NCBI GenBank assembly: GCA_965197745.1
Contig: CBDANS010000007.1
Span: 1,504,001-1,568,000, forward strand
DNA from: Opitutales bacterium
GTDB taxonomy: Bacteria > Verrucomicrobiota > Verrucomicrobiia > Opitutales > PNEW01
Reading direction: 5' to 3'
Length of the DNA: 64,000 nucleotides
The notes beneath the pieces are model-generated. The model searched no databases and was not told the origin of the DNA. It saw only the letters and a list, made by a program, of their open reading frames with translations. Within the stretch, counting starts at the first letter, position 1. Every line of letters starts with the position of its first letter. Below, piece by piece: positions 16,189 to 60,414 of the stretch. The position numbers were made by a program, and so were the translations under genes.

Positions 16189-16404
16189 TGTCATTGCGAG
16201 GAGCAACGCGACGCGGCAATCCAGTAAAATGTCTGTTGCGTAATGTAATTCCCGTGATGTTAGGAATTACTCTCAACTAATCGATTTCCTTTAAATGAAG
16301 AGACGAATCCTCATTGGAAAGACCAGAGCAGAGATTTTTATTCGTAAGCACTATGACTATGTGCCTAGATTGCCGCAGTCGGTTGCACCTCCTTCGCAAT
16401 GACA
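16189..16404 (+). mobile_element. Non-autonomous, internally deleted relative of the GIY-YIG/TIR cassette
   Basis: Ends TGTCATTGCGAGGAG ... CTCCTTCGCAATGACA. Positions 16291-16347 encode LNEETNPHWKDQSRDFYS*, versus LIEKENPFWKDLSRDWYS* in the nuclease, followed by the homologous 3' spacer. Confidence 0.85.
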
Positions 16405-18967: not shown

Positions 18968-19134
18968 TGTCATTGGGAGAAGCGTAGCGACGACGCTACC
19001 CAACGCAGCGACATCTTCCATTCCAGGGGTTTGCCGGTCACGTATTGACATCCCCCTGGAATGGAAGATATCGTCCCACATTTGCGGGACTCGGTAGCTT
19101 CGTCTCCCGCAGACGCGAGATCCTCGCAATGACA
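18968..19134. mobile_element. Non-autonomous palindromic (REPIN/MITE-like) member of the TGTCATTGCGAG family
   Basis: Ends TGTCATTGGGAG ... CTCGCAATGACA. The inner 21-bp inverted repeat cgacatcttccattccagggg/cccctggaatggaagatatcg matches the 5' arm of the GIY-YIG cassette. Confidence 0.8.
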
Positions 19135-36198: not shown

Positions 36199-37558
36199 TA
36201 TCATTTCTGAAAAACAAACCCTCGAAGAACGGTATCTGCGGCAGATTTTTATCCGCGATCAGATGACCGAGTTTGTTAAGGAACCATTTGTAATGAGTGG
36301 TTCTGATGGCGTTTATTATACGGATATTGATGGGAAACGCTACCTTGATGGTATTGCAGGAATCTTTGTCGCTTCAGTGGGCCATAATAACCGACGGGTG
36401 ATTGATGCGATAAAAGACCAGTTGGACAAAATGTCTTTTGCCCCGATCATGCACGGAACGAATGCATTAGCGGTTCAATTAGCCAATATGCTGGCAGAAA
36501 TTGCCCCCGGTGATTTAAGTGCGGTAAAATTTTGCAGTGGCGGAGCCGAAGCAAACGAAACCGCTTTTAAAATGGCGCGCCAGTATCATAAACTCAGTGG
36601 AAATCCTAACAAGTATAAGATTATCTCGCGCTACCATTCCTGGCATGGGGGCACAATGGGGTCCTTATCGGCGTCCGGATTAACCTCACGTCGTGTTGAC
36701 TCCGAGCCACTGGCAGCAGGTTTTGTTCATGTCTTTCCTCCTTACTGCTATCGCTGTCCCTTTGGTAAAGAATACCCCAGTTGTAATATTACCTGCGCCG
36801 GACTGATCGAGGACACAATCATTATGGAAGATCCGGATACCGTCGCTGCCGTAATTGTTGAACCGATTGGGCATACCGGTGGCATCATGGATCCTCCACC
36901 AGAGTATCTGCCCCTATTACGCGAATTTTGCGACAGGCATAACGTGCTTCTGATTTTTGATGAAATAATTACCGGGATAGGGCGCACCGGAGAAATGTTC
37001 GCCGCTGATACATTTGGTGTTGTCCCTGATTTGATTTGTTTGGGGAAGGGATTGTCGGGGGGATACATGCCTCTATCCGCGGTTCTTTGTCGAAGACCCA
37101 TCGCTGATAAATTCTGGGGCGATAAGGAAACAAATCCCGGCTTTGTCTCGGGACATACTTATGAAGGTAATCCCATTGCCTGTGCTGCAGGATTGGCGAC
37201 GTTAACGGAAATTATTGAAAAGGATTTATGCGCAAACGCACGTAAGGTGGGCAGCCATTTACGCCAAGGTCTGGAGGGACTTCGCAAGCATGGAATCATC
37301 GGGGACATTCGAGGGAAAGGAATGTTTTTTGGTGTAGAATTTGTCCGTGATCCTGTGACTAAAGAAAAATTCTCAGATGATATTCCGATTTCCACCCTTA
37401 TTGGGAAACGGGCTTTAGCAAAAGGTCTCCTGTTGCGGTATGACCCGCATTGGATGTCATTGGGACCACCCTTAATCCTGACGGAAGAGCAAGCTGATGA
37501 ACTTGTTTCCATTTTAGACGAAAGCATCACCGAAGTGTTGCAGGAAATAAATAATTAG
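36191..37558 (+). CDS. Class III PLP-dependent aminotransferase
   Basis: SGGAEANE, SWHGGT, LIFDEIITGIGRTG, LGKGLSGG, GHTYEGNP; overlaps the M20 gene by 8 bp. Confidence 0.93.
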   Translation: MSDIISEKQTLEERYLRQIFIRDQMTEFVKEPFVMSGSDGVYYTDIDGKRYLDGIAGIFVASVGHNNRRVIDAIKDQLDKMSFAPIMHGTNALAVQLANMLAEIAPGDLSAVKFCSGGAEANETAFKMARQYHKLSGNPNKYKIISRYHSWHGGTMGSLSASGLTSRRVDSEPLAAGFVHVFPPYCYRCPFGKEYPSCNITCAGLIEDTIIMEDPDTVAAVIVEPIGHTGGIMDPPPEYLPLLREFCDRHNVLLIFDEIITGIGRTGEMFAADTFGVVPDLICLGKGLSGGYMPLSAVLCRRPIADKFWGDKETNPGFVSGHTYEGNPIACAAGLATLTEIIEKDLCANARKVGSHLRQGLEGLRKHGIIGDIRGKGMFFGVEFVRDPVTKEKFSDDIPISTLIGKRALAKGLLLRYDPHWMSLGPPLILTEEQADELVSILDESITEVLQEINN

Positions 37559-37587
37559 AGCGGCAGTCCGACATTTATAAATATCCG

Positions 37588-37782
37588 GAGGGCGACGGCT
37601 GATCGTGGCCTTAACAACAAAGAGGTGGAGCGGGCTGCCTGACGGCCATAGCGTAACACTGCACAGCGACGGCTGTTCCCCAGCACGCTATGTTTAAATA
37701 ATGAATAACGGTTAACGCGCTACAGCACCGCGTTCCACATGATATTGATAAATATTTGGAGGGCCACGCTCCGTCGTGGCCG
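37588..37782. repeat. Mosaic (BIME-like) REP cluster, left of GIY-YIG cassette 1
   Basis: ggagggcgacggctgatcgtggcc; a GTGG-REP with nested insert; acgcgctacagcaccgcgttccac; ggagggccacgctccgtcgtggccg. Segment 37624-37782 is a direct repeat of 38374-38494. Confidence 0.8.
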
Positions 37783-37876
37783 TAGCGTATTAGTGGAAAC
37801 GGGGCAATTTGCCGCTATGCGTAAGTTCAAATAAATAACAACAAGATGCACAATAGATACAAGCTCATGCCCCTTT

Positions 37877-38338
37877 TGTCATTGCGAGGAGTAATACGAC
37901 GCGGCTACCGAGTTCAGCATCTGCGGGACGACATCTTCCATTCCAGAAATATGGGATTAACCAATATCCCATATAAACCGATTATAAATATGTGCGCACA
38001 ATATATTACGTTTATATCCTCACCAATAAACGTAATGGAACACTTTACACAGGAGTCACTCGCAGTTTATTACGTCGCTTATGGGAGCATAAAAATAAAT
38101 TAAAGGTGGGGTTCACCAAGAATTACGATATTCATAGACTGGTATATCACGAATCCTTTTACGATATTGAAAATGCGATTCTACGTGAAAAGCAAATCAA
38201 AGCCGGTTCGAGAAAAAGGAAAATTGCCTTAATTGAAAAAGAGAACCCTTTTTGGAAAGATCTGAGCCGAGATTGGTATTCGTAAGAACAATGACTATTC
38301 GCCTGGATTGCTTCGTTGCATCACTCCTCGCAATGACA
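37877..38338 (+). mobile_element. 462-bp GIY-YIG nuclease cassette with perfect 15-bp TIRs, copy 1
   Basis: TGTCATTGCGAGGAG ... CTCCTCGCAATGACA. Manual alignment gives 8 mismatches to the reverse complement of 41543-42004. Confidence 0.9.
37992..38285 (+). CDS. Small stand-alone GIY-YIG nuclease (UPF0213/YhbQ-like), 97 aa
   Basis: YYVYILTNKRNGTLYTGVT..L.RR..EHK...GFT..Y...LVYHE......AI.REKQIK...R..K..LIE..NP.W.DL. Confidence 0.92.
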   Translation: MRTIYYVYILTNKRNGTLYTGVTRSLLRRLWEHKNKLKVGFTKNYDIHRLVYHESFYDIENAILREKQIKAGSRKRKIALIEKENPFWKDLSRDWYS

Positions 38339-38373
38339 AGAGTAGAGCAAAAGCGAACACTATAATTTCTCTA

Positions 38374-38552
38374 GGTGGAGCGGGCTGCCCCTAGCACGCT
38401 ATATTTAAATAATGAAGAACCTCAAACGCGGTAGAGACACCGCGTTCCACCCGACATTGATGAAAATTTGGAGGGCCACGCGTCGTCGTGGCCGCGATTC
38501 AAGGTACAGCTTATAATGGAAAATACGCGGACGCGACAACGCGCGTCCCTCC
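38374..38552. repeat. Mosaic REP cluster (GTGG doublet + GGAG doublet), right of cassette 1
   Basis: ggtggagcgggctgcccctagcacgc...acgcggtagagacaccgcgttccacc; ggagggccacgcgtcgtcgtggccg...cggacgcgacaacgcgcgtccctcc. An inverted homolog lies at 45562-45686. Confidence 0.8.
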
Positions 38553-38610
38553 ATTATTCTCATGTTCCTATTATCCTGTGTTATCTAGAACAGCCAACCT
38601 GCAAACAGCA

Positions 38611-39444
38611 TTATCGAACAGCGTGTTTGAACAGGGGTTTGGCTTTTTCCGGAAGCTTATCATAAACTTCCAGTGGCATCGGAGGGTATTGGATAACCCT
38701 CTGCTTGGGGTCATCATTAACAATTTTCATTTCTGTCGATCCTGGTATATATATATTCTGGTTCATCCACCAGGGCGCGTAACGGGCAACCATGGAGATA
38801 CGGGGCTCATCCGTTTTATTTGCCCCGCTCGCATGCCACATGCGACTGTCAAAAGCGAGGACGCTACCCTCAGATCCGGTCACCTGTATTTCATCGGGAA
38901 AAGGATCTAAAGTTGGTTCTTCACCATAGGAAGGATTTGTGTCTCGCTTATGGCTGCGCGGCACGAGGTGGGTTCCACCGTTATCCTCCCTAAAGGGGGA
39001 CATCATCCAGATTGTGGTTATGGTCATTAAAATTGTATCAGGGTAGGGGCTTTCAATATGCCCCGCATAGTTTCCTGCGAAAGGTTGATCCCCATGCCAC
39101 TCCCTACGATCACTGCCTGGTATATTATTCGTGGTTGAAGTGGCACAAACGCGAAAATGAGGGCCGAATAAATTTTCTATCAAGGAGGTCATTCTGGAAT
39201 CAGCGAGATATTCGGCAAAGGACGGAATATAATTTATGGAAGATGCGCAATATAAGGTATATCCGTTAGTAACTCGGGTGAACGGTTTGTTTTCGGGTTC
39301 ACCCTGTCCGATCGTGATCAGTTCGTCTCTAATAGGAGCTATGCGATCTTCTGGTACTACATCCTCGATTATACACCAACCCTCTTCACGTATCTCTGAT
39401 GCCAATGACTCCGTTGATTTTACCTCTTGAATATTAGAACTCAT
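38611..39444 (-). CDS. PhyH-family Fe(II)/2OG dioxygenase
   Basis: EEGWCIIEDV, WHGD (HxD), NGGTHLVPRSH, GSVLAFDSRMWHASGAN....PR. Confidence 0.9.
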   Translation of the reverse strand: MSSNIQEVKSTESLASEIREEGWCIIEDVVPEDRIAPIRDELITIGQGEPENKPFTRVTNGYTLYCASSINYIPSFAEYLADSRMTSLIENLFGPHFRVCATSTTNNIPGSDRREWHGDQPFAGNYAGHIESPYPDTILMTITTIWMMSPFREDNGGTHLVPRSHKRDTNPSYGEEPTLDPFPDEIQVTGSEGSVLAFDSRMWHASGANKTDEPRISMVARYAPWWMNQNIYIPGSTEMKIVNDDPKQRVIQYPPMPLEVYDKLPEKAKPLFKHAVR

Positions 39445-39563
39445 TGCTGGTTATTAAATTAATAATGAAAAATATTAGATCAAGAAATATTCAGAAAAAA
39501 TATATTTCTTTAAGGAGTAAAATATGAGATCGACTATTTATAATTTAAATACATAATGAATAA

Positions 39564-39594
39564 TGAGGGTTATTACCCTCAATTCGAATATAAT
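39564..39594 (+). promoter_or_regulatory. Palindromic operator TGAGGGT-N4-ACCCTCA plus TATAAT upstream of a prepilin gene
   Basis: Perfect 7-bp inverted repeat at 39564-39581; TATAAT at 39589-39594; ATG at 39606. Confidence 0.5.
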
Positions 39595-39605
39595 ACCATC
39601 TAGAT

Positions 39606-40079
39606 ATGCATACTAAGAAAATATCGGGGCTTTCGGGTTTTACTTTGGTTGAGGTCATGATCGTGGTTGTGATTATTGGTCTCCTTGCCTCGTTTGCGAT
39701 ACCCGCTTTTAATAGAACGAGGATCGAATCGAGGGGCACGGCGTTCACCAATGACTTGCGTATATTTGCCGACGCTGCAGATACTTATATGCTGGAAACC
39801 GGCGACTACCTGGAAGATTCCGGTAGTGGGCAATTGCCTACGGGGTGGGATAATTATGTTCAGGTGGATAAATGGACGGGTGGTACCCCCATCGGTGGAG
39901 TCTGGGACATGGAATTGGATTCATTTGGATTCAAAGCTGGATTGGGTGTTCATGGGCCTGATTTTACGGTCCAGCAAATGCAAAGTATCGATGATCGGTA
40001 CGATGATGGTGACCTCAATACTGGAAAATTTCGCCGCATTGCGGCCGACCGTTACTATTTTATCCTCGAGGATACCTGA
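39606..40079 (+). CDS. Prepilin-type N-terminal cleavage/methylation protein
   Basis: G|FTLVEVMIVVVIIGLLA; C-terminal IDDRYDDGDLNTGKF. Confidence 0.9.
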   Translation: MHTKKISGLSGFTLVEVMIVVVIIGLLASFAIPAFNRTRIESRGTAFTNDLRIFADAADTYMLETGDYLEDSGSGQLPTGWDNYVQVDKWTGGTPIGGVWDMELDSFGFKAGLGVHGPDFTVQQMQSIDDRYDDGDLNTGKFRRIAADRYYFILEDT

Positions 40080-40188
40080 TAACCGTTAGGAATCACTTCG
40101 TTTGTTTTGCCCATCAGGCAATAAATGCTTGTCCCACACCCAGGGGATCGCAGGATGGCCATGAATACAGTTAAACAAGTATAATCTA

Positions 40189-41439
40189 ATGCCAACTCCC
40201 GGGGACAACTTCACTGAAATTAGTGCCTATCTTGGCAGGCAAGAAGGCACGCTGATTAAATTTCTTCAAGGTCTGATACGAATGCCAACCGTAAATCCCC
40301 CCGGTGATTGCTATACAAATTGCGTAACGGTTCTTGAAAAAAAACTTCATGCCATTGGGATGAAAACCCAGGTCATTCGTGTGCCCTCGATTAAGCAGAG
40401 AAAAGTGACTCTTGACTTCATGAAGTATCCCCGGTTTAACTTGATTGGGAGATGGAATACCGGGGCCACGAAAACACTACACTTTAATGCTCATTATGAT
40501 GTGGTCCCTGTCTCTGGTAATTGGAAATATGGGCCATTTGAACCGAGGGTAAAAGACGGGTGGATTTATGGGCGGGGGTCAGCGGATATGAAAGGCGCCA
40601 TAGCCGCCTGTTGTCTTGCCATTCAAGCCATGAAGCGATGCAGGAGAATTCCAGGGGTCAATGTCGAGGTGTCCTTCACTGCGGATGAAGAAACAGGGGG
40701 CGAATTAGGAGCCGGGTATATAGTCCAGGAAAAGCTGGTAAATCCTGATTATGCGGTGGTGTGTGAGGGCGGCAGTGGAAGAACTGTCGGTTGCGGTCAT
40801 AATGGGGTTCTCTGGTTGGAGTCGATGATAACCGGGAAATCCGCGCATGCCGCGCACCCGCATAATGGAATTAATGCTTTTGAAAACATGTCAGCGCTGG
40901 TCGTAAAATTACACCGGTGGAAAAAAATCCTGCAAAAACGCAGCTTCGTCGGTCCCAATGGAAATAAAAAGCATCCCACCATTAACATAGGAGGCGTATT
41001 CGGGGTTGGTTCAGGGGCGAAAGTAAATACGGTACCTTCTCACGCGAGTTTCACTATTGATAGACGCATTATTCCCAGTGATTCATTTCGCGAATCGGAA
41101 AGAGAAATTAAAAGTGTGATCAATGAAGCCAAAAGGCAGATACCGGATCTTCGCGTGAAAACATCACGCCTTTTAGCCATTAAACCCTGTCTCGTTGATC
41201 ACGAAAGTTACTTTCCCCAAACGGTTGCCCATGCGGTCCGTTCTGTCCTTGGTGGCCGTACTCAATTTGGGGTATGTGACGGGTTTACCGATATGAACCG
41301 CTTTGTTACAGGTAAAATTCCGACCGTGGGCTATGGTCCTGGGGGTAAGAATATTCACAGTGTCGACGAGCGCGCAAAAGTGCGTGATATACTGCAAACG
41401 GCCAGGGTTTATGCAAAACTGATGCTCTCACTTAAATAG
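40189..41439 (+). CDS. M20 ArgE/DapE family deacylase
   Basis: TVNPPG, FNAHYDVVP, YGRGSADMKG, ADEETGG, GKSAHA, IHSVDE. Confidence 0.92.
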   Translation: MPTPGDNFTEISAYLGRQEGTLIKFLQGLIRMPTVNPPGDCYTNCVTVLEKKLHAIGMKTQVIRVPSIKQRKVTLDFMKYPRFNLIGRWNTGATKTLHFNAHYDVVPVSGNWKYGPFEPRVKDGWIYGRGSADMKGAIAACCLAIQAMKRCRRIPGVNVEVSFTADEETGGELGAGYIVQEKLVNPDYAVVCEGGSGRTVGCGHNGVLWLESMITGKSAHAAHPHNGINAFENMSALVVKLHRWKKILQKRSFVGPNGNKKHPTINIGGVFGVGSGAKVNTVPSHASFTIDRRIIPSDSFRESEREIKSVINEAKRQIPDLRVKTSRLLAIKPCLVDHESYFPQTVAHAVRSVLGGRTQFGVCDGFTDMNRFVTGKIPTVGYGPGGKNIHSVDERAKVRDILQTARVYAKLMLSLK

Positions 41440-41542
41440 GGTGAGGGCGACGGCTGATCGTGGCCGTAACGAATAAGTTGGGTCGGAGCAATTTACCACC
41501 GTGTGTAAGTTCAAAAAAATAGCTACAAGCTAATGCACCTCT

Positions 41543-42004
41543 TGTCATTGCGAGGAGTGATGCAACGAAGCAATCCAGGCGAATAGTCATTGTTCTTACG
41601 AATACCAATCTCGGCTCAGATCTTTCCAAAAAGGGTTCTCTTTTTCAATTAAGGCAATTTTCCTTTTTCTCGAACCGGCTTTGATTTGCTTTTCACGTAG
41701 AATCGCATTTTCAATATCGTAAAAGGATTCGTGATATACCAGTCTATGAATATCGTAATTCTTGGTGAACCCCACCTTTAATTTATTTTTATGCTCCCAT
41801 AAGCGACGTAATAAACTGCGAGTGACTCCTGTGTAAAGTGTTCCATTACGTTTATTGGTGAGGATATAAACGTAATATATTTTGCGCACATATTTATAAT
41901 CGGTTTATATGGGATATTGGTTAATTCGATATTTCTGGAATGGAAGATGTCGTCCCGCAGATGCTGAACTCGGTAGCCGCGTCACGATGCTCCTCGCAAT
42001 GACA
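41543..42004 (-). mobile_element. 462-bp GIY-YIG nuclease cassette with perfect TIRs, copy 2 (inverted)
   Basis: Same length and TIRs as copy 1, with the interior reverse-complemented. Flanked by direct repeats GACGGCTGATCGTGG at ~41449 and ~42047. Confidence 0.9.
41596..41889 (-). CDS. Small stand-alone GIY-YIG nuclease, 97 aa
   Basis: Identical to 37992-38285 except T3K. Confidence 0.92.
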   Translation of the reverse strand: MRKIYYVYILTNKRNGTLYTGVTRSLLRRLWEHKNKLKVGFTKNYDIHRLVYHESFYDIENAILREKQIKAGSRKRKIALIEKENPFWKDLSRDWYS

Positions 42005-42130
42005 AGAGTAAGCAAATGCGATCAGCTAACTTCATTACCGCGGGACGACGGCTGATCGTGGTCGTTTCTAAGTTACCTGGTCCCTAATGCCTTTTAGTGG
42101 GGTCGATTTAATAAGCTCAAGTTAATTGAA

Positions 42131-42937
42131 TCAATTTAACCCTCTATAAATATCCCTAATATAGCTTTCTGTTTTCGCCTTATGATGATTCTCGGCAGTA
42201 TTAATACCCGATTTTATTTTATTCAGAGAAATTATCATTTCATCGAAAGTTTTTTGAGCTTCAGCGATACCCGACCCCTCCTGTTCCTGAATTAATTGCC
42301 GGTAATAGGACCCCAGTTTTAACTGGGGGAGAGAAATTTCATGATATGGGGTGCCACGGACCAGTGTATTGTGATTTCTCGTTAGGGAGTTAAAAATTTG
42401 TTCTTCATCTTCTACAGCCTCAGCGGACCTGAATGCTTTGTCTATTTCCCGTTGTGCCGTATCTGAAAACTCCTGATTCTCGCTATCGTAGGCGGCGGTC
42501 ATCGTATTTCTCGCACTGCCTATATATTGGCTTAAATATTTTATTTTAGTCCTGATACTATTGAAGCTTTCATTGACATCAGTATAAATCACTTCGATCG
42601 CTTCCCCTTTTTGAAATGATTCATCAGACTTGGCTAAAGCCATCTCTATTTCGAGATCGATTCGTTTTCTCAGGTTTCTGGCCTTCCTGATAATCGTAGC
42701 AAGTATCCTTTTTTCTTCCCTAAGCTGTCGCTTGAGTTCTTCGATATTCCCATCCTTATTCTTCCTGGATTTTGATTTGCCAAGCAATAATTCAAGTATG
42801 GTGTACGAAGTTTCTGACTTTTGTAGATGAAGGTTCAAACCCTCTATAGCCTGAATCTGCATCTCCCTGGCCATATTAAGCTTAGATCGTTCACTGATAA
42901 GCGATCTGATATCATCTGGAATGGTTAAAGTATTCAT
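42131..42937 (-). CDS. Hypothetical coiled-coil protein
   Basis: 268-aa E/K/R/L-rich helical ORF with no recognised motif. Confidence 0.6.
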   Translation of the reverse strand: MNTLTIPDDIRSLISERSKLNMAREMQIQAIEGLNLHLQKSETSYTILELLLGKSKSRKNKDGNIEELKRQLREEKRILATIIRKARNLRKRIDLEIEMALAKSDESFQKGEAIEVIYTDVNESFNSIRTKIKYLSQYIGSARNTMTAAYDSENQEFSDTAQREIDKAFRSAEAVEDEEQIFNSLTRNHNTLVRGTPYHEISLPQLKLGSYYRQLIQEQEGSGIAEAQKTFDEMIISLNKIKSGINTAENHHKAKTESYIRDIYRGLN

Positions 42938-43100
42938 TAATATAAATCCCTGACCCGTTCAATAATGGTAATATTACGGCCGTCTGATACTCCAGTGAAA
43001 GTTAGTAAAGTATTTTATTTTTGTAAGTAAAAAATACTTAAAAACTACGTCAAGTTTTCTTGAATATTATATTACTAGTGCAGTCGTCAAAATGACTGAT

Positions 43101-60308: not shown

Positions 60309-60414
60309 TGTCATCGCGAGGCTGCTTGTCGGCCGTGGCGATCCAGTGGAATTTCGATCAACTATTGACAGCCCCCTGGACTGCCGCAGTCGGCACACCT
60401 CCTTCGCAATGACA
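60309..60414. mobile_element. Short (106 bp) non-autonomous member of the TGTCATTGCGAG family
   Basis: TGTCATCGCGAG..GCGATCCAG ... CTGGACTGCCGCAGTCGG..CCTCCTTCGCAATGACA. The right arm matches 16370-16404; the spacer tattgacagccccctgga matches 19043-19060. Confidence 0.8.

Follow-up and report, generated by a model that had tools for sequence, protein, structure and literature searches.

The window analysed here comprises 64,000 nucleotides of the genome of an Opitutales bacterium (phylum Verrucomicrobiota; GenBank assembly GCA_965197745.1, contig CBDANS010000007.1, forward-strand positions 1,504,001 to 1,568,000) and contains two units of 462 bp, each consisting of a single gene for a small GIY-YIG nuclease (ssn) framed by inverted repeats. 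Copy 1 (37877..38338) is oriented along the forward strand, and copy 2 (41543..42004), 98.3% identical to it and 3.2 kb distant, lies in the opposite orientation. The two units look like recent copies of a selfish unit, whose movement is put forward here as a proposal.

There are exactly 8 differences between the copies, none of them beyond the first 123 bp, and the other 339 bp are identical, which confirms the counts of the original prediction, made from the letters of the window (two 462-bp units, 8 differences within about 125 bp and some 340 identical bp). In element coordinates the differences fall at positions 16 and 18-21 (the variable part of the left end repeat), 77 and 79 (the leader) and 123, in codon 3 (Thr to Lys); this T3K change is the single substitution between the two Ssn proteins. 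Both units open with TGTCATTGCGAGGAG and close with its reverse complement, and their inverted ends are about 19 nt long. Identity between the copies continues for 4 nt past each unit edge (CTYTT before GTCATT, with one mismatch) and then ends; for copy 1 it spans 37873 to 38342. The boundary of identity, placed 5 nt outside GTCATT, is symmetric at both ends.

All four junctions are bridged into unique flanks by contigs from four public runs belonging to three studies. Contigs of runs X1, X2 and X4 (three studies) join unique flanks to both ends of both copies, and a 735-nt contig of run X6 covers the entire copy 1 together with both its flanks. Mis-assembly, a danger pointed out at the outset, is excluded because contigs bridge the junctions, with the caveat that one bridging run is a possible source of the window's own assembly. 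Both copies are therefore real.

The ssn gene of copy 1 (37992..38285, forward strand) starts with GTG and encodes a 97-aa single-domain GIY-YIG nuclease; that of copy 2 (41596..41889, reverse strand) encodes a protein of the same length with K3 in place of T3. Residues 5-77 match the Pfam GIY-YIG family (PF01541, E 3.2e-13), no second domain is present, and there is one open reading frame (ORF) in each unit, so that the nuclease is indeed all that the units carry, as predicted. Four residues (Y8, Y19, R29 and E66) are invariant across 25 homologues; the spacing of Y8, Y19 and E66 resembles that of Y6, Y17 and E64 of the meningococcal enzyme, an equivalence by position alone. The nearest solved structure by sequence is that of the UPF0213 protein BH0048 (PDB 1zg2, E 1.5e-5), followed by another UPF0213 protein, EF2693 (PDB 1ywl, E 0.37). 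These proteins share with Ssn their size and single domain, with only distant sequence similarity, and no association with repeats is known to us. Among the ORFs of at least 50 aa between 36000 and 44000, the part of the window in which ORFs were scanned for families, none is an evident transposase, integrase or RAYT gene; the prediction that none is encoded holds within this range. A scan of 37700-38500 for sigma-70 promoters and terminators returned no sites, and an Rfam scan of 37000-43000 (E up to 1) no matches.

The structure of the end repeats was derived from the context of all 116 exact GTCATTGCGAG copies in the genome. Each repeat is an oriented sequence of about 35-45 nt, composed of TT, GTCATTGCGAG, a variable inner part and a closing tag of one of two types, i.e. 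type A (GCAATCCAG, 62 genome copies) or type B (GCTACCGAG, 40 copies); a reversed-genome control contained no full repeat of either type. The inner part often has a small stem of its own (CCCGC...GCGGG, GGCT...AGCC and others), and the 8-10 nt upstream of the GTC tag are pyrimidine-rich, with TT nearly fixed. In the two gene-bearing units of the window the type A end lies on the 3' side of the gene and the type B end on its 5' side, with the GTC tags facing outward. Copy 1 thus has a type B repeat at its left end (37878..37912, forward strand; GTCATTGCGAG, 15 nt, GCTACCGAG), whose inner part holds 5 of the 8 differences between the copies, and an inverted type A repeat at its right end (38303..38337, reverse strand; GTCATTGCGAG, 15 nt, GCAATCCAG). 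In copy 2 the type A repeat occupies 41544..41578 (forward strand) and the type B repeat 41969..42003 (reverse strand). The perfect 15-nt terminal inverted repeats first described for these units are consequently real as inverted ends, but each of them covers no more than the outer part, one half, of an oriented repeat some 35 nt long.

These repeats are strongly overrepresented. With up to 1 mismatch, GTCATTGCGAG occurs 10 times in the window, compared with 1.05 expected, a number reached in 0 of 100 shuffles; the exact 11-mer occurs 116 times in the 4.45-Mb genome, where simple arithmetic predicts about 2 copies. The genome-wide copy-number check that had been suggested gave, besides the 116 exact motifs, 102 full repeats and 48 convergent pairs without a gene.

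A system of this type has been described in Neisseria (Chenal et al. 2025, Nat Commun 16:2388, PMC11893778). According to that paper, the repeat NTS (CGTCATTCCCGCGMAVGCGGGAATCYRG) belongs to a wider class of Ssn-related motifs (SRM), and SsnA is a 94-aa single-domain GIY-YIG protein (CDD cd10448) whose homologues have such motifs nearby in 71% of cases and on both sides in 42%. The paper's criterion of homology is a blast match to N. meningitidis SsnA at E below 1e-10. For four purified homologues, binding to the motif is reported only for single-stranded DNA (ssDNA) in one orientation, with cleavage a few nt upstream; the hairpin itself is left uncut, and neither double-stranded DNA nor RNA is a substrate. 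The GTC that precedes the palindrome is important for cutting, the C that follows it for binding, and the N. meningitidis enzyme lowers transformation by NTS-bearing DNA. The Discussion of the same paper calls the NTS-ssnA-NTS architecture identical to that of insertion sequences, likens it to IS200/IS605 and REP/RAYT, and suggests domestication, with no demonstration of mobility. Among published work, judged from titles and the beginnings of abstracts, no report of mobility of such units was found, and PMC11893778 alone treats them; its supplementary tables may list the present lineage or repeat dialect.

Judged by sequence, the units of the window are very probably members of this Ssn/SRM system. 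The assignment is based on the size and single GIY-YIG domain of the protein (97 aa, compared with about 95 aa in the family), the oriented GTC-tagged repeats that frame the gene in inverted orientation, the AATCCAG that closes type A, the many dispersed repeats, and the occurrence of close homologues framed by NTS. As in the published system, the repeats start with (C/T)GTCATT and end with AATC(C/Y)RG, about a hundred copies are dispersed in the genome, the canonical NTS core flanks close homologues, and the architecture is of the kind called insertion sequence-like in PMC11893778. The differences are that the repeat belongs to a longer dialect, whose inner part has 12-21 nt more, that one end of each gene-bearing unit is of type B and has no AATC tag, and that the host, which lies outside the groups studied, carries several gene copies, including the sharply bounded twins. 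What is new here is the repeat dialect and the host lineage of an already published system. The comparison of the units with RAYT/REPIN systems made in the original prediction is thus reasonable, but it is anticipated by the Discussion of PMC11893778. The idea that the enzyme cuts hairpin repeats does not agree with the published enzymes, which cut ssDNA a few nt 5' of the repeat instead; since they act on ssDNA only, single strands should replace the cruciform substrate that had been suggested for an assay.

The association of gene and repeat extends far beyond this host. There are 6342 relatives of the same length as Ssn (E up to 0.001). A scan of one genome per species yielded 588 loci, and flanks were analysed for the best 80 of them (52-69% identity), which come from Alpha-, Gamma- and Deltaproteobacteria, Chloroflexota, Patescibacteria, Bacteroidota, Cyanobacteria, Planctomycetota, Nitrospirota and further phyla. 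GTCATTGCGAG with up to 1 mismatch within 400 bp upstream, together with its complement within 300 bp downstream, was present at 39 of the 80 loci; 11 loci had the motif on one side and 30 on neither. Ten of the motif-less loci have other GTCAT-type inverted ends, and three of these ten (L033, L049 and L071; 56-60% identity) contain the NTS core GTC[A/G]TTCCCGCGAAGGCGGGAA, which lies on either side of the gene in L033 and L071; in L049 the upstream copy, 49 nt before the gene, was recorded in one of two analyses only. The flank survey proposed at the outset therefore gives both-sided repeats at nearly half of the best homologue loci, and the notion of a cognate pair of nuclease and repeat is upheld by the recurrence of the same motif across phyla and by the binding and cutting reported for members of the family (PMC11893778). 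Such repeats also give rise to spurious extensions in annotated proteins; in a Hyphomicrobium protein (P0028) the annotated N-terminal extension reads through the upstream end repeat.

Within the genome, tblastn identified a third intact ssn gene (76% identity, C7:483586-483876), a frameshifted copy (C6:787805-788240) and ssn fragments. Motif matches with up to 1 mismatch number 209, of which 96 form 48 convergent pairs with members 48-528 bp apart. Several gene-less pairs retain the last 60-100 bp of ssn beside the type A end, as would be expected of internal-deletion derivatives. None of the 48 pairs (0/48) is flanked by a target-site duplication, and in 32 of them the inverted repeat reaches no more than 2 nt past GTCATT. 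The longest convergent pair under 1.5 kb measures 528 bp, so that none could hold a transposase. The only Y1_Tnp gene of the genome (RAYT/IS200-type, PF01797; G000:C6:163380-163706, within a 199-aa open frame) has its closest GTCATTGCGAG matches about 5 kb away.

Three of the 48 pairs lie in the window. The first (16190..16403) consists of two inverted type A repeats around an ssn 3'-end remnant and has a 96% identical twin about 20 kb away (G000:C7:1499989-1500202), with homologous flanks over 355 bp; this twin pair is a segmental duplication, not a product of transposition. The second (18969..19133) is made up of two type-B-like left ends forming a long palindrome, and the third (60310..60413) is short (104 bp) with degenerate ends. 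End pairs facing outward were seen as well (G000:C4:88500-88576, C6:950784-950859, C6:980095-980173, C7:385169-385245, C7:733566-733643, C7:1369157-1369219 and C7:1457141-1457218). They are junctions of two adjoining elements, with spacers of about 40-57 bp that appear partly conserved in sequence in 4 of the 7 cases, an arrangement resembling BIME-like clustering. Three more small GIY-YIG ORFs of other types in the genome (G000:C5:56623-56832, C7:982391-982645 and C7:1846203-1846346) are dissimilar to ssn by tblastn; the first and the last of them are placed between other repeated sequences.

The flanks of the twin units provide further information on their history. On the same strand, the left flank of copy 1 (37774..37851) is homologous to that of copy 2 (41458..41538), although the cores are inverted relative to each other: identity is 76.5% over 81 bp, with a local score of 42 compared with a maximum of 15 in 300 shuffles. 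The right flanks, compared in the same way, score 16 (shuffle maximum 15), and in element orientation the flanks are unrelated (scores 8 and 7). Homologous flanks on the same strand with a core on opposite strands indicate that the core is inverted inside old, diverged 'landing pads'. Moreover, in a contig of run X6 anchored in the unique flank, copy 1 has the alleles of copy 2 at 37953 and 37955, demonstrating that sequence has been exchanged between the twins. A double-depth unitig of run X2 carries copy-1 alleles at 41926 and 41928, with other variants at 37903-37922; the quarter in which the twins differ (37890-37960 and 41920-41990) is also the part that varies among strains. Neither excision of a unit nor inversion of the 3.2-kb segment was seen among the contig joints listed; the many short-sided joints at 37780-38530 stem from other dispersed repeats.

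Sites 1 and 2 of the window were compared with the orthologous sites of three genomes of the same family (G001, G002 and G003). A second comparison set G001 against G002 (flanks 93-98% identical) at the positions of two ssn elements and a gene-less pair of G001; loci L225, L233 and L235 were left out owing to insufficient synteny. At site 2 the unit is absent from all three genomes. At site 1, G002 has a unit of 85% identity that lies in the same orientation; G001 and G003 have none. Presence of the unit differs at every orthologous site compared. The search for filled and empty alleles therefore ended in presence/absence differences among relatives, with no clean empty site. In metagenome contigs the empty-site pattern of site 2 gave 0 hits, and the 19-mer of the left flank alone matched twice, by chance and with no homology beyond it; as the organism is absent from that collection, this negative has no power.

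The intergenic DNA of this lineage undergoes very fast turnover, with several repeat families and cassette-like exchange. Between G001 and G002, two orthologous spacers (L227 vs L230, L234 vs L237) contain wholly different repeat families, and a third (L226 vs L229) is mostly conserved around a difference of 690 bp vs 16 bp. Both ssn units are also flanked by a second repeat family (GAGGGC[C/G]ACG, 4-10 nt, CGTGG[C/T]C), described as more abundant, with 82 genome copies; its sites here are 37758-37781, 38470-38493, about 41443-41465 and about 42041-42064. The same spacers are also filled by the families CACCGCGTTCCAC (16 copies) and GGTGGAGCGGGCTGCC (13 copies).

Taking these observations together, we favour, with somewhat better than even confidence, the explanation that the Ssn gene framed by its cognate repeats forms a small selfish family spread by repair-mediated copying. 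That the unit has been copied as a discrete block is the firmer part of this explanation and appears probable. We consider it an evenly balanced question whether the unit is an autonomous, transposase-free mobile element of 462 bp, whose spread would depend on nicking of ssDNA outside its ends and on copying by host repair in either orientation. Lesion-induced, homology-directed copying as the particular route is a more tentative suggestion, to which we would give less than even weight.

By analogy with the enzymes studied, Ssn would bind the oriented repeat when the DNA is single-stranded, e.g. at replication forks or in incoming DNA, and would introduce a nick a few nt 5' of the GTC tag. Since the tags point away from the gene, the nicks would fall immediately beyond the unit, at its left end in the top strand and at its right end in the bottom strand. 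Such a lesion could then be repaired by copying from another repeat-bounded copy, i.e. by homing-like gene conversion, which would move or homogenise exactly the segment from repeat to repeat. Either orientation would be possible, because the outer 16-19 nt of both ends are identical. Copying directed by homology would leave no target duplications and would produce a mosaic of type A and B ends and inner parts, exchange of alleles, and flipped orientation. The end of twin identity, 5 nt 5' of GTCATT, lies within a few nt of the nick position published for other members of the family (PMC11893778); given the general consensus of the flanks, this agreement is weak evidence. That this protein cuts ssDNA like the four studied family members, and that repair-mediated copying (the break repair of the original prediction) is the way in which the unit spreads, are both inferred. 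A peel-and-paste pathway is unlikely, as there is one cuttable site per strand and a GIY-YIG enzyme cannot rejoin DNA.

Several results weigh against this explanation. A hydrolytic GIY-YIG enzyme is unable to join DNA itself. At the five orthologous spacers neither a clean empty site nor an exact terminus or target was found, and insertion is indistinguishable there from replacement or deletion, because the rest of all five spacers is also non-homologous or made up of other repeats. Identity of at least 90% was found in only four pairings, namely two with homologous flanks (segmental duplicates), one 91-bp partial match and the ssn twin; the gene-less copies are mostly old, with no recent burst. 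Folding of the four ends of the twins is not better than that of shuffled sequences (z +0.4 to +1.7), and z averages -0.9 in type A repeats and -0.3 in type B repeats. In single-stranded form the end repeats are weak hairpins, contrary to the hairpin repeats initially envisaged. The type B left ends are devoid of the AATC tag reported as critical for binding in PMC11893778, and the role demonstrated for the family in Neisseria is control of transformation, not mobility (PMC11893778). The published degenerate SRM pattern gave 16 matches in the genome and 19 in the reversed control, none of them at the units; it misses the present repeats because their inner part is longer than the pattern allows. 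As for the comparison with the Neisseria enzyme, the Ssn query protein found no match in the genomes of N. lactamica and N. mucosa, whose sole small GIY-YIG ORF belongs to a different type and is not flanked by NTS. In one of these genomes (N. lactamica NS19, G031) NTS repeats are present and an ssnA gene was not found with the queries used; a Pfam search yielded only UvrC-like matches and a 91-aa GIY-YIG ORF of that other type, also without NTS flanks (L221:1489-1764).

The most substantial alternative, which we regard as unlikely, follows the proposal made for Neisseria that the system has been domesticated by its host. In that case Ssn would be a cellular enzyme of ssDNA restriction or recombination control and the repeats would serve as genomic marks, while the twins would have arisen by ordinary duplication and gene conversion between nearby repeats, the unit itself being immobile. 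Modulation of transformation is the only demonstrated biology of the family (PMC11893778), and the age of the gene-less repeats, the missing clean empty site, the distance of only 3.2 kb between the copies and the exchange of alleles between them in strains all fit this explanation. It accounts less well for the several ssn copies, including frameshifted and fragmentary ones, which form the birth-and-death pattern of a selfish element, for the symmetric stop of identity at both repeat ends with a core inverted within homologous flanks, and for the same end motif accompanying proteins of 55-69% identity in unrelated phyla. Considerably less probable is an ordinary segmental duplication after which the core was turned around by recombination of its 19-nt inverted ends with each other, with no activity encoded by the element. 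The paralogous flanks of the two loci and the two other repeat pairs of the genome that are plain segmental duplicates would suit such a history, but flanks of about 76% identity enclose a core of 98.3%, with a step exactly at both ends, so that later replacement or homogenisation of the repeat-bounded segment alone would be required.

Less probable still is that the end pairs are classical miniature inverted-repeat transposable elements (MITEs), mobilised in trans by an enzyme (transposase or RAYT) whose gene lies elsewhere, with ssn as a passenger. This would explain the inverted ends and the many gene-less copies, and the genome does encode one Y1_Tnp protein; against it stand the 0/48 target-site duplications, the lack, among convergent pairs under 1.5 kb, of any long enough for a transposase, the distance of about 5 kb between the Y1_Tnp gene and the motif, and the linkage of gene and repeat across phyla. 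As for an assembly artefact in one of the copies, assemblers can collapse or duplicate near-identical 462-bp repeats lying 3.2 kb apart, but the bridging of both copies by contigs of X1, X2 and X4 and of copy 1 by that of X6 leaves this with almost no probability.

The units resemble several known types of mobile DNA. With REP/REPIN-RAYT systems and the IS200/IS605 family they share a small nuclease gene framed by short structured repeats recognised as single strands, gene-less pairs and clusters in intergenic DNA, and the lack of target duplication. The enzyme is, however, a hydrolytic GIY-YIG nuclease, whereas those of RAYT and IS200/IS605 are Y1 HUH enzymes that form a covalent intermediate and rejoin DNA, and the ends are inverted here, with one cuttable site per strand. 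Membership among REP/RAYT elements was rejected, as the framed gene is of the GIY-YIG type and the sole PF01797 gene lies elsewhere, with no GTCATTGCGAG within about 5 kb. Homing endonucleases of the GIY-YIG type, both free-standing and encoded in introns (I-TevI and the Seg proteins of T4), have in common with Ssn the catalytic domain and the proposed combination of a lesion with copying from a filled template. In contrast to them, Ssn has no DNA-binding domain, its substrate would by analogy be ssDNA, and its target would be the element's own repeat and not an empty host allele. The model of group I intron endonucleases (TIGR01453) gave 20.4 bits, compared with a cut-off of 56.05, and matched residues 7-40 only; with the whole protein being only 97 aa long, membership in this group was rejected.

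Bacterial MITEs (Correia/NEMIS, RUP and similar) are also intergenic, with many copies composed of inverted end pairs 50-350 bp apart. The present elements differ from them in having neither a target-site duplication nor a cognate DDE transposase; their autonomous partner would be the 462-bp unit with its 97-aa nuclease. Assignment to classical insertion sequences with terminal inverted repeats, or to their MITEs, was likewise rejected, given that none of the 48 pairs has a target duplication and that no longer element with such ends was found among convergent pairs of up to 1.5 kb.

Why thousands of genomes carry the gene flanked by the very repeats that its product targets is a question left unanswered by the paper on Ssn (PMC11893778), and the window is among the cleaner natural indications that gene and repeats are copied together as one block. 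The dialect described here is missed by the published search pattern, and the reach of the family may therefore be underestimated. If the proposal is confirmed, these units would represent a mobile element that needs only a 97-aa nuclease and host repair, which would explain how such repeats colonise intergenic DNA. They would then constitute a new mechanistic class of bacterial mobile DNA, present in most phyla, from which a large part of the 'GTCATT...' intergenic repeats would derive.

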